A stretch of 64,000 nt of DNA from Candidatus Omnitrophota bacterium (GTDB lineage Bacteria; Omnitrophota; Gorgyraeia; Zapsychrales; Zapsychraceae). The notes beneath the pieces were generated by a model. That model saw nothing but the letters and a program-made list of their open reading frames with translations, was not told the DNA's origin and searched no databases. Location of the stretch: the NCBI GenBank assembly GCA_029261065.1, contig JAJDCB010000023.1, positions 39,682 to 103,681 of the forward strand, in the 5' to 3' direction. A program made the position numbers and the translations under genes. Below, piece after piece: positions 7,478-61,988 of this stretch; positions within the stretch are counted from its first letter, which is position 1; the number at the start of each line of letters is the position of its first letter.

Positions 7478-8362
7478 ATGTTTAAATATTACTGGGTCCC
7501 CGCTTTCGCGGGGATGACAATATTATTATTTTTATTAATAGAATCGCTTACGTTTAGCGTGGGATCTCCACTTTACCTGTCATTCCCGCGAATGCGGGAA
7601 TCTCATGCTAGCGATAATCTTAATTCAACTGTTACATCAAATTACGTTCTCACCACAGATAACAAAAAAATCAAATACGACCATTATCTCAATGGGCATA
7701 GCCAAGTTATAATCCTTGCCCATGGATTTTACAACAGCAAACAAGCTGTTTTGTTTAAGCAGATGGCTGCTGATTTGAGTGATGCGTATGATGTGATTGT
7801 TTTTGATTTTCGGGGGCATGGGGAAAGTGAGGGGGTGTTTACGTGGACGGCGAGGGAGCCGAAGGATTTGGAGGCGGTTGTTGATTATGCGCATAAGAGT
7901 TATCAAAAGGTAGGTGTTGTGGGTTTTTCTTTAGGGGCGGCATCAAGTTTGATTCTGGCGGCTCAATCGGATAAGATAACAAGTCTTATTGCGGTTAGTC
8001 CTCCTACAAAATTTAGACAAGTCGATTTTCATTTTTGGAAAATGGGTATGGCTGAGAATATTGTGTATAATACGTTTCAAGAAGGACGCATAGGTAAAGG
8101 CGTACGGCCCGGGTTATTGTGGCATAAAAAGACTCATCCGATAAACGTGGTGGATCAAATTCAAACTCCAACGATGTTTGTTCATGGCCAAGAAGATTGG
8201 TTGATTTTACCAGGGCATTCCAAAAAATTGTATGAAAAGGCTAAATGCCAAAAACAACTCAATATTGTTGAAGGCGGAACACATGCCGAGTACTTGTACC
8301 GATCGGATAAAGAGGGAATCATGGATATGTTTAAAGAATGGTTTCAGTTGACATTGTTGTAG
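7478..8362 (+). CDS. alpha/beta-fold hydrolase (esterase/lipase-like)
   Basis: Nucleophile elbow GFSLG; HGF...DFRGHGESEG; C-terminal GGTHAEY with His. The ORF-track start at 7370 overlaps the upstream gene. The true start is uncertain (7478 or 7592) because the 5' region is occupied by repeat units. Confidence 0.65.
   Translation: MFKYYWVPAFAGMTILLFLLIESLTFSVGSPLYLSFPRMRESHASDNLNSTVTSNYVLTTDNKKIKYDHYLNGHSQVIILAHGFYNSKQAVLFKQMAADLSDAYDVIVFDFRGHGESEGVFTWTAREPKDLEAVVDYAHKSYQKVGVVGFSLGAASSLILAAQSDKITSLIAVSPPTKFRQVDFHFWKMGMAENIVYNTFQEGRIGKGVRPGLLWHKKTHPINVVDQIQTPTMFVHGQEDWLILPGHSKKLYEKAKCQKQLNIVEGGTHAEYLYRSDKEGIMDMFKEWFQLTLL
7494..7603. repeat. Pair of GC-rich palindromic repeat units (GGGTCCCCGCTTTCGCGGGGATGACA ... 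TGTCATTCCCGCGAATGCGGGAATC) lying inside the 5' end of the hydrolase ORF
   Basis: Two hairpins of the repeat family read directly; both are in frame within ORF 7478-8362 (peptides VPAFAGMT and SFPRMRESH). Confidence 0.7.
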
Positions 8363-8504: not shown

Positions 8505-8540
8505 CCCCGCCTTTTGCGGGGTCCCGCTAAAAGCGGGATA
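8505..8540. repeat. Two adjacent GC-rich hairpins (CCCCGC-CTTTTG-GCGGGG; TCCCGC-TAAAA-GCGGGA) of the palindromic repeat family
   Basis: Read directly; flanked by the inverted ACAAG-rich repeats. Confidence 0.65.
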
Positions 8541-10934: not shown

Positions 10935-11052
10935 GTCGTCCCCGCCTCATCTGTCATTCCCGCGCCCGCCTGCCGGCAGGCAGGAAAGCGGGAATCTATT
11001 AATATTAAAAAAGTATTGGGATTCCAGTTGTCACGGGAATGACAACTGGAAT
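10935..11052. repeat. Compound palindromic repeat element: a GTCATTCCCGC...GCGGGAATC unit interrupted by an inner palindrome (CCTGCCGGCAGG), plus CCAGTTGTCA...TGACAACTGG
   Basis: Nested inverted repeats read directly in the 3' spacer of the membrane-protein gene. Confidence 0.65.
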
Positions 11053-38502: not shown

Positions 38503-38757
38503 GACAATTTGGTTTTCGTTCATTGGACGAAAAGGCAAACTTGGGGTAACCCAAGGACGTCCCGCATTTGTAGTGCGGGACCCCGTTCACCTTATGAGAA
38601 TAAGAAATGGCGGGGCAAAACTAGAGGGTCCTATTAAGCGATAGGATAGCCAGACTGGCACTAAAAAAGGTGCTAGACTCCTTTAATAAGGAGTTGCCGA
38701 ATCTGTGGTAGAAGGTATTTAGGCCTATTCTTTTATTTAAAGGAATAGGTTTTTTTA
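38503..38757 (+). ncRNA. candidate small RNA or 5' leader (structured ~250-nt transcript between promoter and terminator)
   Basis: Contains GC hairpin GTCCCGCATTTGTAGTGCGGGAC (38559-38581), ACTCCTT-TAATAA-GGAGT, and a terminal hairpin CCTATTC-...-GAATAGG followed by T7 (38722-38757). No ORF with an RBS. No match to tmRNA/RNase P/SRP motifs that I can see. Confidence 0.3.
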
Positions 38758-40979: not shown

Positions 40980-43900
40980 ATGAAGACATCGCAGTTAACT
41001 TTAATATTATTATTAGGTTTTGTGATGTCTTCTTTTTTGGGGTGTGATCAATTTCGTCCTCAGGAAAAGGGTCTGGTTATTGTTGATCCAAATTCAGAAG
41101 CAGTTGTTGTTGATGAGCAGGGAGATGAAATTGAAAGTGATTATGTTGATATTGTCGAAACGGTTAAGTCTTCAGAAACTGTTATCTTAAGAGATAACAA
41201 AATATTTACCAAAAATTCAAAGAAAAAATTTATTGAGAAAGATGCATCTCCCGCCATACCTGCAACAAAACAAGGTAACGTTAATAATTTAGAAGACGCT
41301 ATTAAAGAAGATCGTGTACCCACAACAAATTTTCAGTCTAAAGATACGCCTAAAGTTAAAAAAGTCGTTCATGAAAAAAGCATCGATCTCTGCAGTGATC
41401 AAGGATATATCTCCTCAGCCGAATGCCGCCTTTGTAGCGATATTCCAGGAGCTATTTGCAGTGAGACGATTAAATTATCTCATGGGGAGCAATGTTTTGA
41501 ATGTGCCACTCAACAAAAAACTTGCCGAGATTTAGGTTTTTTAAGTAAACGAGAATGTAAGAAATGTAATAAAAATGATGCGACAGAATGTGTATTTAAG
41601 GTAGAGGCGGACAACGGAAAATCTTGTTTTGAATGTGTGGATCGTGCCATCAAGTGTAAAGATTTAGGATTGATGAATTTGGATGAATGCACTTCGTGTG
41701 ACAAAGATCCTAAAATGGAATGCATTGCTGATCAGTTAACTGAGGAAGGGGTTAAGTGTTTTAATTGTGTCATTAAGCCTCAAAAATGTTCACAGCTTGG
41801 TCTCATTGATTTGCCTGGATGCCGTACGTGTCAGGAAGATCCCACAAAAGAATGTAAATCATCTAAGAAAACAAATTATGGGCAACAGTGTTATCAGTGT
41901 TTTGATAAAGAACAGAGTTGCGCGGAAATTAATCAATTAGATGTCTCAGAATGCTCAGGGTGTTTATCTCAGGCAGGTAAGGAATGTATAAAAACAGATA
42001 AAACCAAAGAAGGGTTGCAGTGTTATGGCTGTCAGGATCGTCATGAGTCTTGTGCGCATATAGGTTTGTTAAGCCAAGAGCAATGTGAGTCGTGTGACGC
42101 TAGTGAAAAGACACGCTGTGTTGCTGGACGTCAGACATTACAAGGTGAGTCTTGTTTTTCTTGTGTTAAAAAATCAAAAGATTGTCATGGGCTAGGTTAC
42201 CTTAGTCAAGAAGATTGCAGTATATGTGCTCAAAATCCACAAAAAGAGTGTCAGGCGGAGAGTCAAACAAAAGATGGCGAACAATGTTTCGTTTGTCAGG
42301 ATAAACCACAGCAATGTCAGGATTTGGGATTATTGGTGTCTAATCAATGTGAAGAATGTCAAAAGGATCCTACTAAAGAATGTGTGACCGCATTAAACAC
42401 GCAAGAAGGGCAACCATGTTTTGTTTGTCAGGATAAACCGCAACAGTGTCACGACATCGGTCAATTAGCGTTAGATATGTGTTCTGTTTGTTCGAAAGAT
42501 CCCAATAAGTTATGTTTACCAGGTGATAAAACCGAAGAGGGTGTCCAGTGTTATAACTGTGTCGATAGGCCGCAAGAGTGCAGTGATTTTAATCAACTAA
42601 AATTAGATGAATGTTTATTGTGCGAACAGGACGACAGTAAAAGATGTGTGGCGTATGACAAAACAGAAGAAGAGGTTCAGTGCTTTTTATGTGAGGATAA
42701 ACCGCAAGAGTGTAAAGATTTAGGGTTGTTAGCTCAAGATCAATGTGATTTATGTCAGCAAAATTCAAAGAAGGAATGTAGGGTTGATCAGGTTACAAAT
42801 AGCGGTGTGCAATGTTATTCATGCGCGGATAAACCACAGGAATGTCGGGATCTAGGATTGTTTAGTGAAGATGAATGTGGTTTGTGCGAAGAGAATCCAA
42901 AAAAACAATGTCAGATTGATAAACAAACGAAGGAAGGTGTGTCGTGTTTCATCTGTAAAGATAAGCCAAAGGATTGTTTAGACATTGGGTTATTAAATGA
43001 AGAGGGTTGTCAGATGTGTGAGGGGAATGAACGCAAGGACTGCCAAAAGGATGTTCTTACCGATGCCGGTGTGCAGTGTTATACATGTCAAGATAAGCCA
43101 CAAACTTGTGAAGACTTAGGCTTACTTAATCATGAAGGATGTGGGCGTTGTCAAGAAGATGAAAATACAGAATGTATTTTAGAGGCAAAAACAAATCAAG
43201 GGCAAGGTTGTTATTTGTGTGTAGAAAAATTGCAAGATTGTCAGCAGATTGATCAAATCGATTTATCAGAATGTGCGTCGTGTGAAAAAGATGTAAAAAA
43301 AGAATGCCAGATTGGTCAAAAGACAAAGCAAGGCAAACAATGTTATGAATGTGGAGAGAAGGCGCAAGAATGTCTGGATATAAATTTACTAAGTCTTGAT
43401 GAGTGTTTGGCCTGTGAGAAAGAAGATAATAAAATTTGTCAGCATAAAGATAAAACGAAGGAAGGGGTTCAATGTTATAGCTGTGAAGAGAAACCGCAAA
43501 CGTGTGTAGATTTAGGGTTAATAACGGAAGATGCCTGTGAAGTATGTAATCAGAATACAAGAACAGAATGTCAAGTAGATCAGATGACAAAAGAAGGAGT
43601 GTCTTGTTATTCTTGTCAGCAAAAACCTCAAGAGTGTCGAGATTTAGGGTTGTTTAGTTTGGATGAATGCGCCTCTTGTGAAGAAAATATGCGCAAACAG
43701 TGTCAAGAAGATCAGAAAACAGAAGGTGGGACACAATGTTACATTTGTCAGGACAAACCGCAAGCGTGTCATGACATAGGACTATTGGGAATAGATGAAT
43801 GTCAGCGCTGTGAAAGTCAATCTAATAAAATTTGTCAAGTGGATATCCTTACTGAGACCGGTACGCAATGCTTTACGTGTCAAGATAAGCCGCAAGAATG

Positions 43901-46900
43901 TGAAGACTTGGGGCTTCTTAAACAAGCACAATGTGAAACATGTCAGCGTGATGCGAATAAGGAATGCATGTTAACCGAGAAGACGAATCAAGGCGAGCAA
44001 TGTTTTGTGTGTGTTGAGAAGCCCCAAGATTGTTCACAGCTAAACCAGGTGAGTTTGGAAGAGTGTCAAACATGTAATGCCGATCCTGACAAAGAGTGTC
44101 GCGTAGGTAATAAAACGAAAGAGGGAACGCAATGTTATGAATGTGTAGATAAGCCGCAAGATTGTGCGCAGTTGGAATTGCTGAATTTAGAAGAGTGTTT
44201 TGTTTGCGAGGAAAATTCATCGAAAGAATGCGTATCAACTGTGAAAACAAAAGAAGGGATTCAGTGTTATGGTTGTCAGCAGAAAAAGGAAGAGTGTCGT
44301 GATATAGATTTATTATCAAAAGAGCAATGCGAATTTTGTGATCAGAATGCCAAGACAGAATGTCAGATGGATGCCCAAACAAAGGAGGGCAAGCAATGCT
44401 ATTCTTGTGTTCAAAAACCTCAAACGTGCCATGAGTTAGGGCTTTTTAGTCAGGATGATTGTTTAAGTTGTGAAAATAATAAACGCAAACAGTGTCAAGT
44501 TGATCAAAAGACAACGGATGGAACGCAATGTTTTATTTGTCAAGATAAGCCGCAAGAGTGTAATGATATTGGCTTATTAGATGAACCAGGATGTCAAGCC
44601 TGTGATGATAATCCAAACAAAGAATGTCAGGTAGATATTCAGACAGAAAATGGGGTGCAATGTTATACGTGTAAGGAAAAAGTTCAAGGGTGTGAACAAT
44701 TAGGATTTTTGAGCCAATCTCAATGCATGAGTTGTGAGGAAGATGGGCAGAATGAATGTGTTGGTAGTGATAAGACAGCGACTGGAGATCAATGTTATGT
44801 TTGTGTTGAAAAACCGCAATCGTGTGTGGAGCTTGATCAAGTTGGTTTGGAAGAATGTCAATCATGCGAAGCTGAAGATGGCAAAGAGTGCCATGTTGGT
44901 AACAAAACCAAAGAAGGACGACAATGTTATGTATGTGCTGATAAACCTCAAGAGTGTCACGACTTGGATTTAATTAATTTGGATGAATGTTTATCGTGTG
45001 AAGAAGATAGCAACATGAAATGTAACAGTAAAGGAAAAACGCAAGGTGGTATCCAGTGTTACGCCTGTGAAGAAAAGAAACAAGAGTGTCGTGATTTAGG
45101 ATTTTTAGCTTCAGATCAATGTGAGTTTTGTAATAAAAATGATAAAACGGAATGTCAAGAAAGTGAAAAAACAAAAAGTGGTGAGTTATGTTTCAGTTGT
45201 GTCATGAAACCTCAAACATGTCACGGTCTTGGGTTGTTTAGTTTAGATGATTGTCAAACATGCGAAAGTAATCCGCGTAAACAATGCCAGGCTGATCAAA
45301 TGACGGATGATGGATCCCAATGTTATATATGTCAAGATAAGCCGCAAAACTGTCGAGATATTGGACTGTTAGGCGAGGATGGATGTCAATTATGTGAGAA
45401 AAATAATAAGACATGTCAGGAAGATATATTAACGGAATCGGGCGTTCAGTGTTTTAGTTGTAAAGATAAACGAATGACGTGTGATGATTTGGGGCTACTT
45501 GGCCAATCTGATTGTAAAACGTGTGAGCATGATGCGAATAAGGAATGCATGCTATCCGAAAAAACGAACGATGGCGAACAATGTTTTGTCTGTGCCGAGA
45601 AGCCCCAAGATTGTTCTCAGTTAGATCAGATTAATTTGAGAGACTGTCAATCCTGTGAAAGCGACTCCTCGAAAGAATGTCGTGTTGGTAATAAGACGAA
45701 AGAAGGACGGCAGTGTTATGGATGTGTTGATAAACCACAAGAATGCGCGCAATTAGAACAGATAACGTTAGATGAATGTTTATCCTGCGAAGAAGATCCC
45801 AATAAAAAATGTATGACAAAAGATAAAACGCGTGAGGGCGTGCAATGCTACGCGTGTGAAGATAAGAAAAAAGAATGTCGAGATTTAGGCTTATTCTCCG
45901 AGGAACAATGTTCTTTCTGCCAACAGAATTCAAACACGGAATGTCAAGCTGTTGAAACAACACCTGATTCATTAACATGTTTCTCTTGTGTAGAAAAACC
46001 ACAAACGTGTCATGGTCTGGGTCTTTATAACCAAGAAAATTGTCAGAAGTGTGAAAGTAATCCACGTAAACAATGTCAGGCGGATCAAAAGACAAAAAGT
46101 GGAGAGCCGTGTTTTATTTGTCAGGATAAACCGCTTGAGTGTGAGGATATAGGTCTTCTAGATGAAGAGGGGTGTCGCGTTTGCCAAGATGGTTTGGGTA
46201 AGGTTTGTCAAAAAGATATTCTAACTGAGAATGGCGTGCAATGTTTTACTTGCGAAGAAAAACCGCAAGAGTGTCCGGATTTAGGTCTGTTAAGTTCAGA
46301 GGGATGTGCAGAGTGTCAAAACGATTTAACCAAGGATTGTTTACTAGCTCAGAAAACAAATCAAGGAGAAGAATGTTTCTTATGTGTGGATAAACCTCAA
46401 ACATGCCAAGGCATTGGTCAATTAAATTTAGACGAATGTCAAACGTGTGAATCAGATGGAACTAAAGAATGTTTGGCAGGAAATAAGACAAAAGAATCTC
46501 GTCAGTGTTACACATGTGAAGATAAAGCACAAACGTGTGAAAGTATAGATTTGATCAATTTAGATGAATGTCAAAATTGTGATGAACAGCCAAACATGGC
46601 CTGCAAAACGTCTCAGAGAACAAAGGAAGGGCGTCAATGTTATTCATGTGAAGAACGGGCTCCAGAGTGTCTAGACTTTGGGCTCTTATCACAAGAACAA
46701 TGTCAGCAATGTAATCAGAATCCATCCACGGAATGTCGAAAAGAAAAGAGTATGACATCAGGAGAAGGATGTTATGCCTGTGTGGATAAACCACAAGAAT
46801 GTCAGGACATTGGACTACTTAATCAAGAAGATTGTTCGCAATGTGAAAAAGATAAGCGAAAAGAATGTCGAGCTGATCAAACAACAAAAGAAGGCGTTCA

Positions 46901-47738
46901 ATGTTTTGTTTGTCAAAAGAAGCCAAAACAATGTGGAGATATTGGATTACTTGCGAAAGATCAATGTGTTCAGTGTGAAAAGAATGGAAGAAAGCAATGT
47001 CAGCAAGATTCGAAAACAAAATCAGGTGAGCAATGTTATGTGTGTGAAGATCGGCCTGAGGCGTGTGACGATTTAGGTTTGATTAATGACAAGCAATGTA
47101 AAACATGTGAAAGCAATCCAAAGGCCAAATGTGTGGCCACAGCTAAGACGAATAATTCTGATCAGTGCTTTAGATGTGTGATGCAAGAACAACAGTGTTC
47201 TGATATTGGACTCTCTGATTTATCAGAATGTTCAGCTTGTGAGAGTGATTCTAATAAACAATGTTTGGCTGCAAAAAAGACTGATAGTGGTATTCAATGT
47301 TATTCTTGTCAAGAGAAACCGAAGGGTTGTGCGAGTCTTTCACAACTAAGTTTGGCGGAATGTAATTCTTGTGAGACCGATGATAATAAGACATGTCAAC
47401 AAGCCAAGAAAACAGCCGATGGGGAGCAGTGTTATTCTTGTGAAGATAAACCACAACAACAACCAAGCCAGGCTTGCACAGATATTGGTCAGTCCAGTTT
47501 TGAACATTGTAAAGATTCATGTCCCGGGGAATGTTTGGAGGCTAGCTCCACAAAAAGTGCTGAACAATGTTACCGCTGTAAGGTTCCATTAGGAGCTCGA
47601 GAATGTCTGGATTATGAATATTTTCAAGATTGTAATTCTTGTACAGCAGATGAAAAATGTGCCAAGACAGGGTTGAGGTTGTTTGAAGGTAGTGGGCGTG
47701 GCGTTCCTTTAACCTGTTATACTTGCCGCCCGAAGTAA
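40980..47738 (+). CDS. giant cysteine-rich tandem-module lipoprotein (no recognised family)
   Basis: 2252 aa; TGGAG RBS; signal peptide with lipobox FLGC. About 45 tandem 44-aa modules with invariant spacing C-x2-C-x6-C-x10-C-x2-C-x7-C and core [DE]KPQxCxDLGLL. Very rich in K/E/D/Q; about 270 Cys in total. Confidence 0.8.
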   Translation: MKTSQLTLILLLGFVMSSFLGCDQFRPQEKGLVIVDPNSEAVVVDEQGDEIESDYVDIVETVKSSETVILRDNKIFTKNSKKKFIEKDASPAIPATKQGNVNNLEDAIKEDRVPTTNFQSKDTPKVKKVVHEKSIDLCSDQGYISSAECRLCSDIPGAICSETIKLSHGEQCFECATQQKTCRDLGFLSKRECKKCNKNDATECVFKVEADNGKSCFECVDRAIKCKDLGLMNLDECTSCDKDPKMECIADQLTEEGVKCFNCVIKPQKCSQLGLIDLPGCRTCQEDPTKECKSSKKTNYGQQCYQCFDKEQSCAEINQLDVSECSGCLSQAGKECIKTDKTKEGLQCYGCQDRHESCAHIGLLSQEQCESCDASEKTRCVAGRQTLQGESCFSCVKKSKDCHGLGYLSQEDCSICAQNPQKECQAESQTKDGEQCFVCQDKPQQCQDLGLLVSNQCEECQKDPTKECVTALNTQEGQPCFVCQDKPQQCHDIGQLALDMCSVCSKDPNKLCLPGDKTEEGVQCYNCVDRPQECSDFNQLKLDECLLCEQDDSKRCVAYDKTEEEVQCFLCEDKPQECKDLGLLAQDQCDLCQQNSKKECRVDQVTNSGVQCYSCADKPQECRDLGLFSEDECGLCEENPKKQCQIDKQTKEGVSCFICKDKPKDCLDIGLLNEEGCQMCEGNERKDCQKDVLTDAGVQCYTCQDKPQTCEDLGLLNHEGCGRCQEDENTECILEAKTNQGQGCYLCVEKLQDCQQIDQIDLSECASCEKDVKKECQIGQKTKQGKQCYECGEKAQECLDINLLSLDECLACEKEDNKICQHKDKTKEGVQCYSCEEKPQTCVDLGLITEDACEVCNQNTRTECQVDQMTKEGVSCYSCQQKPQECRDLGLFSLDECASCEENMRKQCQEDQKTEGGTQCYICQDKPQACHDIGLLGIDECQRCESQSNKICQVDILTETGTQCFTCQDKPQECEDLGLLKQAQCETCQRDANKECMLTEKTNQGEQCFVCVEKPQDCSQLNQVSLEECQTCNADPDKECRVGNKTKEGTQCYECVDKPQDCAQLELLNLEECFVCEENSSKECVSTVKTKEGIQCYGCQQKKEECRDIDLLSKEQCEFCDQNAKTECQMDAQTKEGKQCYSCVQKPQTCHELGLFSQDDCLSCENNKRKQCQVDQKTTDGTQCFICQDKPQECNDIGLLDEPGCQACDDNPNKECQVDIQTENGVQCYTCKEKVQGCEQLGFLSQSQCMSCEEDGQNECVGSDKTATGDQCYVCVEKPQSCVELDQVGLEECQSCEAEDGKECHVGNKTKEGRQCYVCADKPQECHDLDLINLDECLSCEEDSNMKCNSKGKTQGGIQCYACEEKKQECRDLGFLASDQCEFCNKNDKTECQESEKTKSGELCFSCVMKPQTCHGLGLFSLDDCQTCESNPRKQCQADQMTDDGSQCYICQDKPQNCRDIGLLGEDGCQLCEKNNKTCQEDILTESGVQCFSCKDKRMTCDDLGLLGQSDCKTCEHDANKECMLSEKTNDGEQCFVCAEKPQDCSQLDQINLRDCQSCESDSSKECRVGNKTKEGRQCYGCVDKPQECAQLEQITLDECLSCEEDPNKKCMTKDKTREGVQCYACEDKKKECRDLGLFSEEQCSFCQQNSNTECQAVETTPDSLTCFSCVEKPQTCHGLGLYNQENCQKCESNPRKQCQADQKTKSGEPCFICQDKPLECEDIGLLDEEGCRVCQDGLGKVCQKDILTENGVQCFTCEEKPQECPDLGLLSSEGCAECQNDLTKDCLLAQKTNQGEECFLCVDKPQTCQGIGQLNLDECQTCESDGTKECLAGNKTKESRQCYTCEDKAQTCESIDLINLDECQNCDEQPNMACKTSQRTKEGRQCYSCEERAPECLDFGLLSQEQCQQCNQNPSTECRKEKSMTSGEGCYACVDKPQECQDIGLLNQEDCSQCEKDKRKECRADQTTKEGVQCFVCQKKPKQCGDIGLLAKDQCVQCEKNGRKQCQQDSKTKSGEQCYVCEDRPEACDDLGLINDKQCKTCESNPKAKCVATAKTNNSDQCFRCVMQEQQCSDIGLSDLSECSACESDSNKQCLAAKKTDSGIQCYSCQEKPKGCASLSQLSLAECNSCETDDNKTCQQAKKTADGEQCYSCEDKPQQQPSQACTDIGQSSFEHCKDSCPGECLEASSTKSAEQCYRCKVPLGARECLDYEYFQDCNSCTADEKCAKTGLRLFEGSGRGVPLTCYTCRPK
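41470..47490 (+). repeat. Intragenic tandem repeat: 132-bp unit (one 129-bp copy) with a higher-order super-repeat of 6 units (792 bp)
   Basis: Protein periodicity read directly. Antisense stop-free artefact ORFs at 43126 and 43918 are exactly 792 bp apart. Comparable modules 12 units apart (e.g. 43930-44040 vs 45510-45620) look about 80-85% identical by eye. Confidence 0.75.
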
Positions 47739-48143
47739 AATAGACTGACCTAGACAAACCCAGACAGTATGATTTCAAATTAAAAAAATTTTAAAATAAT
47801 TAAAGCTTCTATCTTAAATCAGATTAGATGTTTATGTAAAAAATATGATTTTTCCGTCTGGGATCGCTGGTTTTTGCCATAAAAATGTTTTATATTTATT
47901 AAAGATTCACATGATGTGAATGTAGTTCTGAATGCGTAATAAATATGGAGGACAACATGGCTGAATGGAAAGAAGACAAACCAATAAAAACATCAAACGA
48001 AGAGCGAGATATTTTTAGTTGGGATGAACCAAATATTCTTTTGTAATCAACGGTATGTACCCCAGAGCAACTACGGGGTATTAAACCAAGATGGAATTTC
48101 GTTAAAGCTTCGAAATTCCTTGAATACCAACTTCATTATATAA

Positions 48144-48181
48144 ATCCTATTCCTTAATTATTAAGGAATAGGATTTTTTTT
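48144..48181 (+). terminator. rho-independent terminator
   Basis: CCTATTCCTT-AATTATT-AAGGAATAGG followed by T8. The stem sequence is similar to that of the 38722 terminator. Confidence 0.55.
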
Positions 48182-48504: not shown

Positions 48505-48575
48505 GTTTTTTTTGGGTTAAAAATTAAATTTGAAAATGGACTTGTATTGGCTCATAATGGAGCTTCTTGATATTT

Positions 48576-48745
48576 TGTCATTCCCGAGGCATCGGGAATC
48601 AAATGGATTCCGGCTCTTCGGCCGGAATGACATAAGAGTACTTGTCAGAATGACACGAGAGTATTTGTCGGAATGACACAAAAACACCTGTCATTCCCGA
48701 GACATCGGGAATCTATTAGGTTCTGGATCTTCGGCTGAAATGATC
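48576..48745. repeat. Cluster of four or more GC-rich nested palindromic repeat units (TGTCATTCCCGAGGCATCGGGAATC; GGATTCCGGCTCTTCGGCCGGAATGACA; direct repeats ...TTGTCRGAATGACA...; TGTCATTCCCGAGACATCGGGAATCTATTAGG)
   Basis: Read directly in the 260-bp spacer between the YkgJ-like gene and cmoA. Confidence 0.75.
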
Positions 48746-49578: not shown

Positions 49579-50541
49579 TTGAAACCACCTTTTCAAATTA
49601 CAAAAGAAATCCATAATCTCTGTTTAGAGATATCTCGTTTAATAGTCCAATATGAAGGTTTAAGCCTACCAGCTCCTCAACTTGAGTTGAGAAAGCATGC
49701 AAAAATTCTTACGATTCAATCTAGTCTTGCTATTGAGGGCAACACGTTAACGATAAATCAGGTAACGGACATTATTAATAATAAAAAAATTGTTGGCCCT
49801 AAGAAGGATATATTAGAGGTTAAGAATGCTATAAAAGTTTATGATATTCTCAATAAATATGATTCCCAAGATTTAGATTCCCTTCTTGGGGCGCATAAAA
49901 TTCTCATGAGTGGTTTAATCAAAGATGCAGGGAAGCTGAGAAAGAATAATGTGGGTGTTAGAGCGGGGGATACTATTGTTCATATGGCTCCACCTTATAA
50001 GGTTGTCCCTGAGCTAATGAAGAAGCTTTTTCAATTTCTAAAAGTGGAGAAGGATTTAGATCCTCTTATTCGATCAAGTATTTTTCATTATGAATTTGAA
50101 TTTATTCATCCCTTTATGGATGGAAATGGTAGAATCGGTCGCTTGTGGCAATCTGTTATTCTTTATGATCATTCTAAAATTTTTGAGTATATCCCTATAG
50201 AGACCATTATTAAGCGTCGGCAAATGGAATATTATGAAGCCTTGCAAGCATCCACTAAAGAAGGGGCTTCGACGTTGTTTATTAAATTTATGCTTGAGGC
50301 GATTAAAGAAGCAACCGTTCAATTTACAAAAGATATTAAACCAGTACATCAAACAGCTGAAATGAGATTGAAGATGGCTCATGCTCATTTTGGGAATAGA
50401 TTGTTTAATCGAAAAGAATATTTAGCATTACATCATAATATTTCTCCTACAAGTGCAACACGAGATTTGTCTTTTGCAGCTGAGAGAAATATTCTCAAAA
50501 GGGTAGGAAAATTAAGTACAACCAAATACCATTTTTTATAA
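49579..50541 (+). CDS. Fic/DOC family protein (probable AMPylator)
   Basis: Fic motif HPFMDGNGRIGR; TTG start after GTGAGGA. Confidence 0.85.
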   Translation: MKPPFQITKEIHNLCLEISRLIVQYEGLSLPAPQLELRKHAKILTIQSSLAIEGNTLTINQVTDIINNKKIVGPKKDILEVKNAIKVYDILNKYDSQDLDSLLGAHKILMSGLIKDAGKLRKNNVGVRAGDTIVHMAPPYKVVPELMKKLFQFLKVEKDLDPLIRSSIFHYEFEFIHPFMDGNGRIGRLWQSVILYDHSKIFEYIPIETIIKRRQMEYYEALQASTKEGASTLFIKFMLEAIKEATVQFTKDIKPVHQTAEMRLKMAHAHFGNRLFNRKEYLALHHNISPTSATRDLSFAAERNILKRVGKLSTTKYHFL

Positions 50542-50615: not shown

Positions 50616-53600
50616 ATGAGCACTTCACCAAATACTCAATTCCAATTTCCTGAAGTTCGTGTTGTGGAGGCATCCGCAGGCTCGGGCAAGACCTATGCGT
50701 TGTCCAAGCAATACATCCAGCTTTTATTAAATCCTAAACTATTGTTTGATCATGTTCCGATGCGTAATATCTTGGCGCTTACCTTTACCAACAAAGCCGC
50801 TTTTGAAATGAAAAGGCGTATTATTCAATTTTTAAAGATTATTGCTTTTAAACAGTTAACCAAAGATCAAGAAGAGGATGTTTTAGGATCCATTGGTATT
50901 AATCGTGAAGAGGCTAGTAAAAAAGCCTTTACGATTATGGAGGCGTTGATTAATAATTATAATTTCTTTCAAGTTCAAACCATTGATAAATTTATCAACG
51001 CGCTTCTTTCGGGTTGTGCTTTTAAAATTGGACTCACCGCTAATTTTCGCATCAAAACAAACTCCAAAGACTATTTAGAGTACAGTCTTGATCAACTCAT
51101 TGATCAAGCCTTGCGGGATAAAGACACGCTTAAACTTCTTCAAGAATTTCTGCACCATTATTTATATCTAGAAAATCGTCTTGGTTGGTTTCCTAAGAAG
51201 GATATGTTAGAGATTGTTAAAGCCTTGTTTATGCAAAATAACACGTATGGTCTGATGTTTGAAGAGACGGAATATTCGTCTCAAGATATTATTAAGAAGA
51301 AGAGATTGATTTTAGATGAGATGAGAAACTTAAAGAGTATCATGCCAGAAGGTGCGGATCTAAGGTTTGTGAAAGCTTTTGATAAATTTTTATTGGATCG
51401 TGAAAAGGGTTTTGATATTGATAGTATTTCGGATTATTTTAAAAGAGAAGTCTTTCCAGCTAAGAAGAATGTTGAGGTGTCACGCGCTGTTGAAAAATCT
51501 TGGGATAAGATTCACAAGAGTTTAAAACAGTTATGCGAAGAAGAAGCCTTTTCTTTGTTTAATCCTTATATTCAGATTTATGATCAGGTTAAAGGGATTT
51601 TTTTAGAACGTGCAGCCCGTGATGATGTTTTATTCTTAGAGGAATTAAATAAACGAGCGGGAGCTTTGTTTGATGATGATTATGTGACCGTTGAAGAGCT
51701 GTATTATCGATTGGCCACACGATTTCATCATTATTTGATTGATGAGTTTCAAGATACGAGTGCCCTTCAGTGGCATAATTTAGAGAAGATGGCAGAAGAG
51801 GCTTTATCCACGGGTGGTTCGTTATTTTATGTAGGAGATCGCAAGCAAGCGATTTATGGATTCCGAGGAGGAAATGTCGCGTTATTTGATCAGATAAAGA
51901 TGAGATTTAAAAGTTTTAATGTTCAAATTGCTCAGCTGACGAATAATTGGCGCAGTCAGAAAAGTGTTGTCGAATTTAATAATGCTGTTTTTGGGATGGA
52001 AAACTTAAAACATTTTATTGAACAAAAACAGGCGCGTGAGATAAGTAAGAAGAAAAAAAATCCTGTGGTCTTTTACGATGATGATTTTCTAGAGCTTCAA
52101 AATATCTTTGGGAGTTCTCAGCAATCCCATCAGCCAAAGAATGATAAAGGTTTTGTTTATATCCAAAAAATTGAGGCTGCAAAAAAGGAAGATCGCGACG
52201 AAATTATAAGAGAACATGTGCTTGAGCTTGTTGATGCTTTGCGTAAGCGGTTTTCTTTTTCGGATATTGCTTTTTTAACACGAAGTAATTATGAGGTCGA
52301 GCAGCTTACCAATTGGTTGCTTGAAGAGAAAATTCCAGTCGAGTCAGAGCGAACATCAAATATTAAAGAAAATGTTCTTATCGCTGAGATCGTCTCTTTC
52401 TTAAAGTTTCTTCACTCTCCTATTGATAATATCGCGTTTGCGGATTTTATTTTGGGCGACATTTTCACAAAGGCAACGGGCCTTTCTAAGACAACGATTC
52501 AAGAGTTTGTCTTTTTGTTAAGAGCGCGAACATCAAAGGAACGTGATTTTTATATTTATACAGAATTTCGAAAACAGTTCCCTGAGGTTTGGGATAAGTA
52601 TATTGAAAGTTCTTTTGCGAATGTTGGTCTGTATCCTCTGTATGAATTGGCGATTAGTTTTTATAGTCTCTATGACTGCCTAAATCTTTTTCCTGAGTTT
52701 CAAGGGTACTTAATGCATTTTTTAGAAATCATTAAGAATCAAGAGGAAGAGCATTCTGATATTGAATCTTTTTTAGAATATTATGATGAGCTTATTGGGG
52801 AGGCGTTGTATGTGCATGTGACAGACACCGATGCCATCAAAATTCTTACAGTGCATAAATCTAAAGGGCTTGAGTTCCCCGTCGTCATTATTCCCTTTCT
52901 AGGGATGGATGTTCAAGTCGGTGTTTCTCAAGAACAACAAATGTCTTATATCCTTCAAGAACATGAAAATTCTTTACAGTTATTGAGACTTAAGGGTAAG
53001 TATTTAGGGTTCTCAGAGAAGTTGTATGAGATTTATGCGAAAGAATATAAAAAGGCATTTATATCCGAGTTAAATAATATTTATGTCGCCATGACGCGTG
53101 CCCAACATGAATTGTATGCCTTTATCCCCGAAAAAATTGGTCAGAGTTTTAATTTGGCCCAACTGTTGATTCCAGAAGATGTTTATCAATGTGGTCAACC
53201 TCACATTTATGAAAAGTCCAAAGCTAAGTCAATGGCGGTTAAGAGATTAAGCGCCTCTTCTTATCAAGATTGGATTCATTTTTTGAACGATGAATTTTTA
53301 GATGAGGATCAGATCCATAATAGGCAAAAGAAGCTTGGGGGTGAAGTTGTTCATAGTATGTTGTCTTTTATTGGGAATCTTGCTCACGAAGATAAAGAAT
53401 TGGCCCTGGAACAAGCCTATAGTCATGCTCAAATGAATTTTCCTTTTGTCGATCATTTGGACGCTTATCTAAAAAAAGTGAAACAACTTCTTAACAATAA
53501 ACGTTTTGAGTCCATCTTTTCTGATAAAGATGCGCAAGTGTTTACGGAAAAAGAAATTGTTAACGCGTTTGGGCATAGTAAAAGGATTGATCGGCTGATT

Positions 53601-53810
53601 GTTAAGACAAGTGAGGTTTGGATTGTTGATTATAAATCGTCGCAAGATGAGGGCGGTGATTATGAAAAACAAGTGGGAGAATATATGGCTTTGGTTGATA
53701 AGTTGTATCCTCAGCATGAGATCAAAGGATTTATTGTTTACTTAGATGATTTACATATGCAAGAAGTGAAATCAATCAGCACTGTCATTACTGAGACATC
53801 AGGAATCTAA
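50616..53810 (+). CDS. AddA-like UvrD-family helicase with C-terminal PD-(D/E)xK nuclease
   Basis: 1064 aa. Walker A ASAGSGKTYAL; motif II LIDEFQDTS; motif III YVGDRKQAIYGFRGG; motif IV NWRSQ. C-terminal nuclease IVDYKSS...E.YM. The last 9 codons plus the stop lie in a repeat-family unit. Confidence 0.8.
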   Translation: MSTSPNTQFQFPEVRVVEASAGSGKTYALSKQYIQLLLNPKLLFDHVPMRNILALTFTNKAAFEMKRRIIQFLKIIAFKQLTKDQEEDVLGSIGINREEASKKAFTIMEALINNYNFFQVQTIDKFINALLSGCAFKIGLTANFRIKTNSKDYLEYSLDQLIDQALRDKDTLKLLQEFLHHYLYLENRLGWFPKKDMLEIVKALFMQNNTYGLMFEETEYSSQDIIKKKRLILDEMRNLKSIMPEGADLRFVKAFDKFLLDREKGFDIDSISDYFKREVFPAKKNVEVSRAVEKSWDKIHKSLKQLCEEEAFSLFNPYIQIYDQVKGIFLERAARDDVLFLEELNKRAGALFDDDYVTVEELYYRLATRFHHYLIDEFQDTSALQWHNLEKMAEEALSTGGSLFYVGDRKQAIYGFRGGNVALFDQIKMRFKSFNVQIAQLTNNWRSQKSVVEFNNAVFGMENLKHFIEQKQAREISKKKKNPVVFYDDDFLELQNIFGSSQQSHQPKNDKGFVYIQKIEAAKKEDRDEIIREHVLELVDALRKRFSFSDIAFLTRSNYEVEQLTNWLLEEKIPVESERTSNIKENVLIAEIVSFLKFLHSPIDNIAFADFILGDIFTKATGLSKTTIQEFVFLLRARTSKERDFYIYTEFRKQFPEVWDKYIESSFANVGLYPLYELAISFYSLYDCLNLFPEFQGYLMHFLEIIKNQEEEHSDIESFLEYYDELIGEALYVHVTDTDAIKILTVHKSKGLEFPVVIIPFLGMDVQVGVSQEQQMSYILQEHENSLQLLRLKGKYLGFSEKLYEIYAKEYKKAFISELNNIYVAMTRAQHELYAFIPEKIGQSFNLAQLLIPEDVYQCGQPHIYEKSKAKSMAVKRLSASSYQDWIHFLNDEFLDEDQIHNRQKKLGGEVVHSMLSFIGNLAHEDKELALEQAYSHAQMNFPFVDHLDAYLKKVKQLLNNKRFESIFSDKDAQVFTEKEIVNAFGHSKRIDRLIVKTSEVWIVDYKSSQDEGGDYEKQVGEYMALVDKLYPQHEIKGFIVYLDDLHMQEVKSISTVITETSGI

Positions 53811-53903
53811 TGGATTCCCGATGTCTCGGGAATGACAGGCTCCGGTTTGTCATTCCCGCGAAGGCGGGAATCTAATGGTTTTCCCCCGTCATGGGGGAAT
53901 GAT
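53791..53903. repeat. Three GC-rich palindromic repeat units (CTGTCATTACTGAGACATCAGGAATCTAATGG; GGATTCCCGATGTCTCGGGAATGACA; TGTCATTCCCGCGAAGGCGGGAATCTAATGG; TTCCCCCGTCATGGGGGAA)
   Basis: Read directly; the first unit supplies the C-terminal codons TVITETSGI and the stop of the AddA-like ORF. Confidence 0.75.
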
Positions 53904-53928
53904 AGATATAAAAATTAAATGGTGATAA

Positions 53929-56782: not shown

Positions 56783-57223
56783 ATGAACAGTAATCATCCA
56801 AAAAAGGGATTTAGCCTCACAGAGCTTGTTGTCGTTATGGTTCTTGTTGGGGTTATTGCAGCCATGGCTATTCCAACTTATACAACAATGGTGCAAAAAA
56901 GAAGAGAGCAAGCCGTAAGACTGAAGTTACAGACGATACATGCGGCTAATTTGATTTATAAAGCAAAAAATGATGTTTATTATAATGACAATAGTACTAA
57001 TATTGCAGACGTGAATACGGCGCTTCAAACGAATGTTAATATAGAAAGTTATGAACAACTTGGTTATCAAGTTAATGATCCTGCTTACATTATCGTAATT
57101 TTTATTGCCACCGATGGTAACGGGGTAGGTGTGAGATTACTTGATGCTGTTATGGATGATAATAACCCTTGTTGTATTGTTGGGACAGGTTGGGACTCTT
57201 GTATATCTATGCCAGATTGTTAA
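56783..57223 (+). CDS. type IV pilin (prepilin with class III signal peptide)
   Basis: MNSNHPKKG|FSLTELVVVMVLVGVIAAMAIP: leader, Gly-1, Phe+1, Glu+5 and a hydrophobic helix. The C-terminal Cys-Cys...Cys...Cys region is consistent with a D-region disulfide loop. Confidence 0.75.
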   Translation: MNSNHPKKGFSLTELVVVMVLVGVIAAMAIPTYTTMVQKRREQAVRLKLQTIHAANLIYKAKNDVYYNDNSTNIADVNTALQTNVNIESYEQLGYQVNDPAYIIVIFIATDGNGVGVRLLDAVMDDNNPCCIVGTGWDSCISMPDC

Positions 57224-58751: not shown

Positions 58752-58796
58752 ATAATGTTATCTTTGTGTAAGTTGGAAGCTCGAAAAATTAATCTC

Positions 58797-58870
58797 TGTC
58801 ATCCCCGCGAAAGCGGGGATCTCGAAGGTGTTATAATTATGAATAGTTCCCCGCTTTCGCGAGGATGACA
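58797..58870. repeat. Two GC-rich palindromic repeat units (TGTCATCCCCGCGAAAGCGGGGATC ... TTCCCCGCTTTCGCGAGGATGACA)
   Basis: Read directly between convergent gene ends. Confidence 0.7.
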
Positions 58871-58877
58871 CTATTGT

Positions 58878-60167: not shown

Positions 60168-61988
60168 ATGCGAGTTTTAACAAAATCACCCCAACACATT
60201 TTAAAATCCGTTTTTGGTTACGATGCCTTTCGGCCATTGCAAGATGAATGTATTCGTGATGTTTTAAAAAAGAAAGACAATTTGCTTGTCATGCCGACAG
60301 GTGGGGGCAAGTCGTTATGCTATCAAATCCCAGGTCTTATTTTTGATGGTCTGACTATTGTTGTTTCCCCTTTAATAGCCTTAATGCAAGATCAGGTGAG
60401 TCAACTTAAAGCGCTTGGTGTGGATGCTGTCATGTTAAACAGTTCTTTAACTTGGGATGAGTATGATCGAAATAAAGCTCTTGTTTTAAGCGGACAGACA
60501 AAATTGCTTTATTTGGCACCAGAAACTTTAGTCAAAGATGATATCCAACACATGTTATGCGAAATTTCCGTTGATTGTATTGCCATCGATGAAGCCCATT
60601 GCATTTCAGAGTGGGGCCATGATTTTCGTCCGGAATATAGACAACTTAAAAGTTTACGCAAAAATTTTCCAGATGCCGTTTATCTAGCAATGACAGCAAC
60701 AGCGACCCCGCGTGTGCGTCTGGATATTGTCAGCAATCTGGGATTACAAGTGAAGGAACCTTTGATTGCGAGTTTTAATCGTGAGAATCTTTATTATGAA
60801 GTGATCCCGAAATCTAGTCCTAGTCTGCAAACGTTGGATTTTTTAAAACGCTTTAAACATCAAAGCGGAATCATTTATTGTTTTTCTCGTAAACAGGTGG
60901 ATGCTTTGACCGCTGAACTTAATCAACATGGCTATAAAGCGTTGTCCTATCATGCCGGTCTTCCCGATGATGTGCGATCACGTAATCAAGAGATGTTTAT
61001 TCGGGATGATGTTCAGATTATGGTGGCAACAATTGCCTTTGGTATGGGGATCAATAAACCCAATGTTCGTTTTGTCATTCATTTTGACCTGCCTAAAAAC
61101 TTAGAATCCTATTATCAAGAAACAGGACGCGCTGGACGTGATAATTTGCCAGCCCATTGTTTGTTGTTGTTTGGTTATGGCGATATCAGAAAGATTCGTT
61201 ATTTTATTGATCAAAAAGAAAGTGATGATGAAAAGCGCGTTTCACAAACACAGTTAAATGCGATGATTCATTATGCTGAGGCAGAAGCGTGTCGGCGAAC
61301 ACCTTTAATGAATTATTTTGGAGAAACCTATACGCGTAAAACATGTGGTCAATGCGATAATTGTTTAAATCCTAAAGAAGTCAATTTTGATTTAACTGAA
61401 GCAGCCAAGAAGTTCCTTGAAACGGTTTTAAAAACAGGAGAACGTTTTGGAGCTTCTCATGTGATTGATGTCATAAGAGGGAGTCGATCACAAAAGGTAT
61501 TAAGTTATTTTCATGAACAATTAGATGTCCATGGCATTGGTCGTGAGTATAGTGCCAAGCAGTGGCAATTTTTGGTAAGACAGTTTATTCAAAGGCAGCT
61601 ACTTTATAAAGAGCCAGAATATGGGGTTCTTAAATTAAATGCAAACTCGAATAAAGTTTTAAAAAATGAATTAGAAGCGCAAGGGTACGCGCCACCAGCT
61701 GAAAAAGAAAAGGTTGTTTCAAGAGTTAAAAAAGAACTCGTGATTGAAGATTATGATGCCGTTTTGTTCGATATATTACGAAAGAAAAGAAAACAGCTAG
61801 CCGACAGTCAAGGAATCCCGCCCTATATTATATTTCCAGACAAATCTCTTATCGAGATGAGTGCTACTTTGCCACAGAATAAAGATAGTTTTTCCACTAT
61901 TTTTGGGGTAGGTCAAAAAAAGCTTGAAGATTATGGGGATGCTTTCCTTGGAATCATTCAGGCCTATTCTCAAGCTAGGCATAAGTAA
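60168..61988 (+). CDS. recQ: ATP-dependent DNA helicase RecQ
   Basis: 606 aa; GAGGAG RBS. Motif 0 FGYDAFRPLQ; Walker A PTGGGKSLCYQ; DEAH box (IDEAHCISEWGHDFR); a Cys-rich run consistent with the RQC zinc-binding site; C-terminal HRDC-like region. Confidence 0.9.
   Translation: MRVLTKSPQHILKSVFGYDAFRPLQDECIRDVLKKKDNLLVMPTGGGKSLCYQIPGLIFDGLTIVVSPLIALMQDQVSQLKALGVDAVMLNSSLTWDEYDRNKALVLSGQTKLLYLAPETLVKDDIQHMLCEISVDCIAIDEAHCISEWGHDFRPEYRQLKSLRKNFPDAVYLAMTATATPRVRLDIVSNLGLQVKEPLIASFNRENLYYEVIPKSSPSLQTLDFLKRFKHQSGIIYCFSRKQVDALTAELNQHGYKALSYHAGLPDDVRSRNQEMFIRDDVQIMVATIAFGMGINKPNVRFVIHFDLPKNLESYYQETGRAGRDNLPAHCLLLFGYGDIRKIRYFIDQKESDDEKRVSQTQLNAMIHYAEAEACRRTPLMNYFGETYTRKTCGQCDNCLNPKEVNFDLTEAAKKFLETVLKTGERFGASHVIDVIRGSRSQKVLSYFHEQLDVHGIGREYSAKQWQFLVRQFIQRQLLYKEPEYGVLKLNANSNKVLKNELEAQGYAPPAEKEKVVSRVKKELVIEDYDAVLFDILRKKRKQLADSQGIPPYIIFPDKSLIEMSATLPQNKDSFSTIFGVGQKKLEDYGDAFLGIIQAYSQARHK

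Follow-up and report, generated by a model that had tools for sequence, protein, structure and literature searches.

The GC-rich palindromic repeats scattered through the window, by which we mean the whole 64,000-nucleotide stretch of DNA that was analysed, are members of CGTC-tagged REP family 1 (CGTC-1), a repeat family that includes the neisserial dRS3/NTS repeats (NTS, Neisseria Transformation Sequence) and also goes by the name of Ssn-related motif (SRM). This membership is shown by their sequence, structure, polarity, doublet layout and location. Our overall reading, which we consider likely, is that these are CGTC-1 repeats that were spread by a process linked to ssn genes. The binding and cleavage of such units by Ssn are taken from the literature, and we infer an ssn gene in the host, as well as past or present mobility of the units, only by analogy with the characterised systems. 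What is new here is the occurrence of an already published repeat family in a probable Omnitrophota genome and in a compact doublet form.

The host is probably an uncultured Omnitrophota bacterium and not a proteobacterium, judging from its gene sequences. The next-best relatives of the RecQ at 60168-61988 are at most 67% identical to it, and the named ones (59-63%) are labelled Candidatus Omnitrophota, in agreement with the original prediction that the host is not Neisseria. GC content is ~37% across the window, and the + strand is richer in G than in C over its whole length; coding sequence makes up 92% of the first 62 kb and intergenic DNA ~8%, and the + strand holds nearly all genes. The same genes as in the window were found on short-read Logan contigs of run SRR15505515. 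Separately from the repeats, the product of an ORF at 40980-47738 is a protein of 2252 aa, in which a signal-like segment at the N-terminus is accompanied by dozens of Cys-rich repeats, each of ~40 aa (C..C...C..C); no Pfam match was obtained for it. Logan contig L241 (173-3843) carries PilO-like and secretin genes in the DNA immediately preceding the window, and a pilin-like gene with an N-terminal methylation motif is located at 56783-57223; these genes possibly represent type IV pilus or DNA-uptake machinery, and such machinery would be relevant if the repeat units affect incoming ssDNA.

Architecture and polarity of the repeat units

An intact unit opens with TGTC, after which an 8-bp stem starting AT and its return arm enclose a loop usually of 4 nt; a C and a short tail follow. 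The stem variants present in the window are ATTCCCGN / ATTCCCG[C/A], ATCCCCGC and ATTCCGGC. The pattern ATTCCCG-N(1-12)-CGGGAAT occurs five times in the window, where 0.01 occurrences are expected, and TCCCCGC-N(2-8)-GCGGGGA occurs twice, where 0.00 are expected. Scanning the window for a GTC[AG] tag followed by a hairpin yielded 19 matches compared to 1.4 in shuffled sequence, and ~12 of the 19 are real family members.

As the literal SRM search pattern under-calls the family (three matches), a covariance model was used, and this model was built solely from 60 foreign units taken from viral contigs and unrelated genomes. It identified 11 oriented units in the window at E<=0.005 (E 3e-10 to 5e-3): 53842-53878 (+), 53807-53843 (-), 48683-48719 (+), 48570-48606 (+), 7572-7608 (+), 58791-58827 (+), 11014-11050 (-), 7489-7525 (-), 48600-48638 (-), 53777-53813 (+) and 10955-11002 (+). 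Several decayed or partial copies exist beyond these, giving a total of 11 to ~17 units that occupy five strong and two weak spacers spread over 58 kb. The dispersed, REP-type palindromic family that had been predicted for the intergenic DNA was thus recovered with a model derived from foreign units, which placed its 11 units in the spacers of a window that is 92% coding. The prediction had named seven GC-rich hairpin loci; all seven hold the described sequence and five are strong, while those at 1256-1292 and 8505-8540 are weak and show no match to the model. No Rfam family matched anywhere in the window at gathering thresholds.

When the same palindromes are read in the opposite orientation, they score ~15 bits with the covariance model instead of 40-48 bits. 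The polarity of a unit is therefore set by its non-palindromic flanks, and the units are asymmetric elements rather than plain palindromes. Indeed, GTC upstream and C directly after the palindrome are kept in 12/12 intact units. Minus-oriented units have CCA or CCC as their tail, and in plus-oriented units it is CTA, CAA or CTC. Within the stems, pairing is found in 95% of cells, with compensatory changes at three of the eight pairs, and folding of units and doublets as ssDNA (DNA parameters) gave z-scores from -2.4 to -8.0.

Doublets, their placement and possible signs of insertion

Most units are arranged as inverted doublets with their tags outward (HH), and five such doublets are present, at 48576, 48689, 53787, 53849 and 58797. 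Four of them share a ~58-nt alignment with a 5-nt spacer, and in several one partner has decayed. Doublets with the tags outside are also the commonest arrangement among 521 foreign units, and the 5-nt spacer in the window is shorter than that of all 63 measured foreign doublets of this type.

The region 48576-48745 is made up of two inverted doublets, the second of them decayed, and a 23-nt tandem array of unit termini. In the first doublet (48570-48638), a + unit, TGTC-ATTCCCGA-GGCA-TCGGGAAT-C (model E 1.8e-8), is followed after the 5-nt spacer AAATG by a - unit, TGTC-ATTCCGGC-CGAAGA-GCCGGAAT-C (model E 1e-3), and the ssDNA fold of the whole has an energy of -17.8 kcal/mol (z -4.9). The array (48623-48681) comprises 2.6 copies of a 23-nt repeat with consensus CGGAATGACACAAGAGTACTTGT (Tandem Repeats Finder score 90), each consisting of the duplicated tag end (CGGAATGACA) of the minus-oriented unit and 13 nt of flank; it may have arisen by slippage or by repeated partial copying beside the expected cleavage side of the unit. 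The second doublet (48683-48745) contains an intact + unit, TGTCATTCCCGAGACATCGGGAATC (model E 5e-9), and a decayed - partner, GGTTCTGGATCTTCGGCTGAAATGATCA, which was recognised only via alignment to the other doublets. A Fic-domain gene (49579-50541) lies between the two largest repeat clusters.

The second of these clusters begins with a near-perfect 52-nt palindrome (53777-53843), a doublet of a decayed + unit, ATTACTGA/TCAGGAAT (model E 2e-3), and an intact - unit (model E 2.8e-9), which folds as ssDNA with -22 kcal/mol (z -8.0). The intact - unit carries the same 25-mer as the unit at 48689 (48689-48713 and 53812-53836), an identity that suggests recent copying or selection. The adjoining doublet (53842-53905) contains the best unit in the window, the + unit TGTCATTCCCGCGAAGGCGGGAATCTAA (47.7 bits, E 3.4e-10), and a decayed - partner, TTTTCCCCCGTCATGGGGGAATGATAG. 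The fifth doublet (58791-58876), which represents the ATCCCCGC variant, lies between convergent genes and has a wider separation of ~22 nt between its + unit, TGTCATCCCCGCGAAAGCGGGGATC (model E 7.9e-7), and its decayed - partner (model E 1.6). Both of its units fit the published SRM search pattern, and its ssDNA fold reaches -25.6 kcal/mol (z -7.8).

At the remaining strong loci the units are arranged in other ways. Two units with tags inward, ~60 nt apart, are found at 7489-7608, where a ATCCCCGC variant in - orientation (7489-7525, model E 8.4e-5) is followed by a ATTCCCGC variant in + orientation (7572-7608, model E 2.8e-8); the stretch 7492-7519 fits the SRM search pattern. The locus at 10935-11052 combines three elements: the half unit TGTCGTCCCCGCC (10935-10947), a + unit (10953-10996, model E 5e-3) whose loop has received a 24-nt insert with a hairpin of its own, CCTGCC-GGCA-GGCAGG, and a - unit (11021-11052, model E 3.8e-5) embedded in a palindrome with a 13-bp stem, ATTCCAGTTGTCA...TGACAACTGGAAT. 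The nested and paired units of the original prediction are therefore real, the insert hairpin in 10953-10996 being an example of the former and the five doublets of the latter.

At the weaker of the loci, a degenerate relative on the + strand (1256-1279), GGTC-GTCCCCGC-TCGA-GCGGGGCC, was matched by the tag-plus-hairpin scan and not by the model, and it has an 11-mer, GTCGTCCCCGC, in common with 10937-10947; we assign this GTCG-tagged hairpin (1256-1292) to the family only weakly. The two abutting GC-rich hairpins at 8505-8540 have no GTCA tag and no model match (fold -15.6 kcal/mol, z -4.5), and may be decayed units or unrelated. An isolated hairpin with an 8-bp stem, GTCCCGCA-N7-TGCGGGAC, occurs at 38559-38581 in a 373-bp spacer before an NHL-repeat gene, and it too lacks a match to the unit model.

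The original prediction had proposed that a covariance model be built and its matches mapped relative to gene ends. When the units are mapped in this way, the spacers that hold them all separate genes that run in the same direction (++) or converge (+-), and the three divergent (-+) spacers contain no unit. This placement would suit a role at the RNA level, in which the units, regardless of how they arose, stabilise mRNA 3' ends, serve as processing sites or cause attenuation between genes that are transcribed together, and most REPs have been argued to be transcribed (Di Nocera et al., PMC3733652). We nevertheless regard such a role as the main explanation as rather improbable, since units of both orientations occur, no Rfam family was matched, the hairpins on the + strand lack a T-run, and SsnA, the characterised nuclease that recognises such units, does not interact with RNA (PMC11893778). 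The suggestion that the hairpins serve as intrinsic terminators was rejected for want of T-runs in the units; canonical terminators with T-runs do exist in the genome, a true one being present at 48142-48176. No + strand unit was called as a terminator, and the only call on a unit lies on the non-transcribed strand (48628-48607).

Comparison with relatives bears on how the units came to lie where they are. In a sister Omnitrophota genome from the same sample (GCA_029261055.1), units are absent from 15 kb that share the addA-addB-recQ neighbourhood, while the repeat family is present in another relative. In the window, the last ~9 codons (TVITETSGI) and the stop of an AddA-like helicase-nuclease gene (50616-53810) lie inside the decayed + unit (53785-53811), and the protein runs 20 residues past the last aligned position, compared to four in the 58%-identical homologue of the sister genome. 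The patchy presence among relatives and the stop supplied by the unit fit insertion rather than ancient conserved sequence, and the 25-mer shared by two units was counted as fitting insertion as well. The addA-addB spacer of the sister contig (6441-6460 and 6487-6506) holds two copies of a different palindrome, GGGGCATGAT[AT][AC]ATCATGCCC. A hairpin there could be useful, or the spacer could merely tolerate insertions, and to this extent the pair also hints at the role at the RNA level that was considered above.

The class of mobile element to which the units had been assigned, a selfish element of REP/MITE type, stands in its REP part, while the MITE and selfish labels are unproven, with neither target-site duplications nor a transposase seen. 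A MITE was rejected as a candidate: the doublets, with their inverted ends, measure ~58 bp as opposed to 70-300 bp, and target-site duplications are lacking. The sequences bordering the doublets at 48576, 53787 and 58797 contain no direct duplication.

It was also observed that Logan contigs of SRR15505515 end within a few bases of units (L241 at ~7522, L001 at ~8499 and L248 at ~48684), and of the four ends of Logan contigs inside the window, three coincide with units. The clusters at 10935-11052 and 53777-53905, on the other hand, were assembled through. These contig ends and the spread of the clusters over 58 kb hint at genome-wide dispersal, a hint that is suggestive only and to which we attach little weight.

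Relationship to CGTC-1, dRS3/NTS and SRM repeats

In CGTC-1 REPs, a tag reading CGTC or TGTC precedes a stem of 8 bp that starts with AT; the loop has 4 nt and the tail is CCA. These REPs occur mostly as HH doublets between same-direction or convergent ORFs, and they correspond to dRS3 in Neisseria (Di Nocera 2013, PMC3733652). The repeats of the window agree with this description in the TGTC variant of the tag, the 8-bp AT stem, the 4-nt loop, the short unpaired tail and the predominance of HH doublets, and also in their placement between same-direction or convergent ORFs, with occasional overlap of a gene end. Tag, 8-bp stem and 4-nt loop together are found as defined in nine units. They differ in that CCA forms the tail of only one unit per doublet, with CTA, CAA or CTC on the other, in that some loops are longer (6 nt, or 24 nt with a nested hairpin), and in that the phylum of the host lies outside the five phyla listed for CGTC-1 (PMC3733652).

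The neisserial repeat dRS3 is the core of the 28-nt oriented NTS, with consensus CGTCATTCCCGCGMAVGCGGGAATCYRG, which has been generalised to the SRM (Chenal et al. 2025, PMC11893778). The best unit of the window (53848-53875) is identical to the NTS consensus at 26 of 28 positions, and 0 such matches are expected. With SRM/NTS, the window units have in common the YGTC tag, a ATTCCCGCG-type stem, the C after the stem, a CYR tail and their clustering in intergenic DNA. They differ in the probable Omnitrophota host, in the unusually tight doublets (5-nt spacer), and in that most units depart from the pattern at one position (for instance a tail of CTAA/CTCA in place of CYNB, or a stem closed by A-T). 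The published SRM search pattern accordingly finds three units in the window compared to 0.05 expected, so that 3 of ~12 intact units fit exactly, and each of the ATTCCCG units that were checked by hand is off the pattern at one position. The role of NTS in natural transformation was shown in Neisseria, and the window units are likened to NTS by their sequence.

In its original definition, dRS3 (ATTCCC-N8-GGGAAT) is a repeat of Neisseria that is found on the flanks of mosaic elements and is targeted by phages for integration. Five copies in the window satisfy its pattern exactly, so that the outline noted in the original prediction is accurate. The window repeats were not classed as dRS3 in the strict sense: the core is shared, but the host is not Neisseria, and the window ORFs provide no prophage or recombinase context (Pfam).

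Searches well beyond the host bear on how this likeness should be understood. An exact search of viral contigs for TGTCATTCCCG-N6-CGGGAATC found at least 120 stretches, on contigs of 32-71% GC, and almost all of the viral matches listed read TGTCATTCCCGCG.A.GCGGGAATCCAG. The A-T-closed variant, GTCATTCCCGA-N4-TCGGGAAT, was searched in one genome per species and found in at least 119 stretches from dozens of phyla; among the matches listed are Patescibacteria, Dehalococcoidia, Bacteroidota, Proteobacteria, Planctomycetota, KSB1, Zixibacteria and one Woesearchaeota MAG. Given matches in so many other phyla, the idea that this stem variant is host-specific was ruled out. The same 19-23-nt core is present in these genome stretches and viral contigs. 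At positions left free by the search pattern, 157 foreign genome units have Y before GTC in 98% and C after the palindrome in 95%, followed by a C(C/T)A tail.

The original prediction had set the resemblance to dRS3 aside as convergence or a curiosity. A chance likeness, with a family private to the host lineage, might be expected from the large phylogenetic distance between this host and Neisseria, and we hold it to be exceedingly improbable. The likeness reaches the asymmetric flanks, with YGTC upstream and C(C/T)A downstream, it extends to 26 of 28 positions of the NTS consensus, the family has been published as crossing phyla (PMC3733652, PMC11893778), and the same core with the same asymmetric flanks was recovered in our scans of genomes and viral contigs. 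For these reasons we treat the resemblance as family membership.

Two observations from these searches stand apart from the window. Exact NTS-type units are carried by at least 120 IMG/VR contigs (e.g. L069, L116 and L007), some with three to six units per ~14 kb, and the viral units usually lie 10-25 nt upstream of a ribosome-binding site and start codon, and share the orientation of that gene; such dense SRM units in what seem to be phage genomes may merit separate study. In addition, GTCATTCCCGA-N4-TCGGGAAT is contained in a contig of the Woesearchaeota (DPANN archaeal) MAG, JBAZVA010000056.1, which could be a real cross-domain presence or a mis-binned bacterial contig.

A proposed partnership with Ssn nucleases

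SsnA, a single-domain GIY-YIG protein of 94 aa, binds the hairpin exclusively in single-stranded form and on just one of the two strands, and its cut falls a few nt upstream; cleavage depends critically on the GTC, and binding on the C that follows the stem (PMC11893778). The ssn genes are usually flanked by SRMs in an IS-like layout, and among genomes with more than 200 SRMs, 81% encode Ssn and 19% lack an SsnA homologue (PMC11893778). Mobility of SRMs by Ssn is a hypothesis of the same authors, demonstrated in no organism (PMC11893778). In our searches, both window stem variants (ATTCCCGCG and ATCCCCGCG) were found at foreign loci directly beside ~95-aa GIY-YIG genes, and one foreign locus (L061) has the full unit-ssn-unit layout. 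An ssn gene lies within the fetched stretch at 7 of ~240 motif-carrying foreign loci, so most units are far from any ssn gene.

Ssn, a single-domain GIY-YIG protein (cd10448), was sought in the window and ~7 kb of flanks (~71 kb) by tblastn, jackhmmer and unfiltered hmmsearch, using three foreign Ssn proteins. No Ssn/GIY-YIG homologue emerged there (best E 0.39), and none was found in the loci of Omnitrophota relatives. Pfam identified no transposase, recombinase or GIY-YIG domain in ~45 window ORFs.

These results can be accommodated by the following sequence of events, which is modelled on the characterised systems. A unit would fold into a hairpin when the DNA is single-stranded, and an Ssn-type nuclease would bind this hairpin on one strand and cut a few nt upstream of the tag. 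Through such an ssn-linked process, units would have been seeded in the host and multiplied, mostly as tag-outward doublets, and they would now reside in spacers that follow genes, where their presence is tolerated. Provided that an ssn gene is retained in the genome, they may still be strand-specific sites of ssDNA cleavage or recognition.

The units could instead be orphan relics, that is, CGTC-1/SRM repeats by descent in a host that lost ssn or never had it, now neutral or mildly useful hairpins with no dedicated protein partner. We consider this unlikely, though it deserves the most attention among the alternatives. It would account for the missing ssn gene in ~71 kb of host DNA, for the decayed partners (48717-48745, 53878-53905 and 58840-58876) and half units (at 10935 and in 48640-48680), and it has a parallel in the 19% of SRM-rich genomes without an SsnA homologue. 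However, 71 kb covers little of a genome, a number of units are intact, and an identical 25-mer occurs in two copies.

The inverted-doublet layout also resembles that of REPINs, which raises the question of whether the units are classical REPs mobilised by a RAYT (an IS200/IS605-type tyrosine transposase). Like REPIN/RAYT REPs, they are short, palindromic and intergenic, and form inverted doublets that can fold into one long hairpin. They differ in carrying a TGTC tag rather than GTAG/GTGG, in the missing RAYT in the window, where a Y1_Tnp Pfam match was obtained in 0 scanned ORFs, and in a proposed partner that belongs to the GIY-YIG and not the HUH superfamily. As CGTC REPs have moreover been reported without a dedicated transposase (PMC3733652), we judge mobilisation by a RAYT very unlikely.

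Within the preferred reading of CGTC-1 repeats spread by an ssn-linked process, one more specific proposal concerns the doublets. The tight 58-nt tag-outward doublet may itself be the replicating entity, with an Ssn-type GIY-YIG nuclease serving in trans as the ssDNA transposase that copies it, a proposal that we put forward as quite doubtful. If it is true, the family would resemble REPINs but depend on an enzyme from another superfamily, and the terminus duplications at 48623-48681 would have been left behind by cleavage immediately outside the tag.

For the family, the finding means that a 25-nt element of neisserial appearance is a motif found across bacterial phyla, which corrects a tempting misreading, and the literature ties this motif to a newly characterised class of site-specific ssDNA nucleases (PMC11893778). 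In practical terms, assembly from short reads breaks at the units, which can also lengthen or shorten genes at their ends, as in the AddA-like C-terminus, and those who annotate MAGs should be able to recognise them. Should ssn be present in the host MAG, this lineage would provide a distant, low-GC example with unusually compact doublets, which could help test whether Ssn mobilises its own target repeats.
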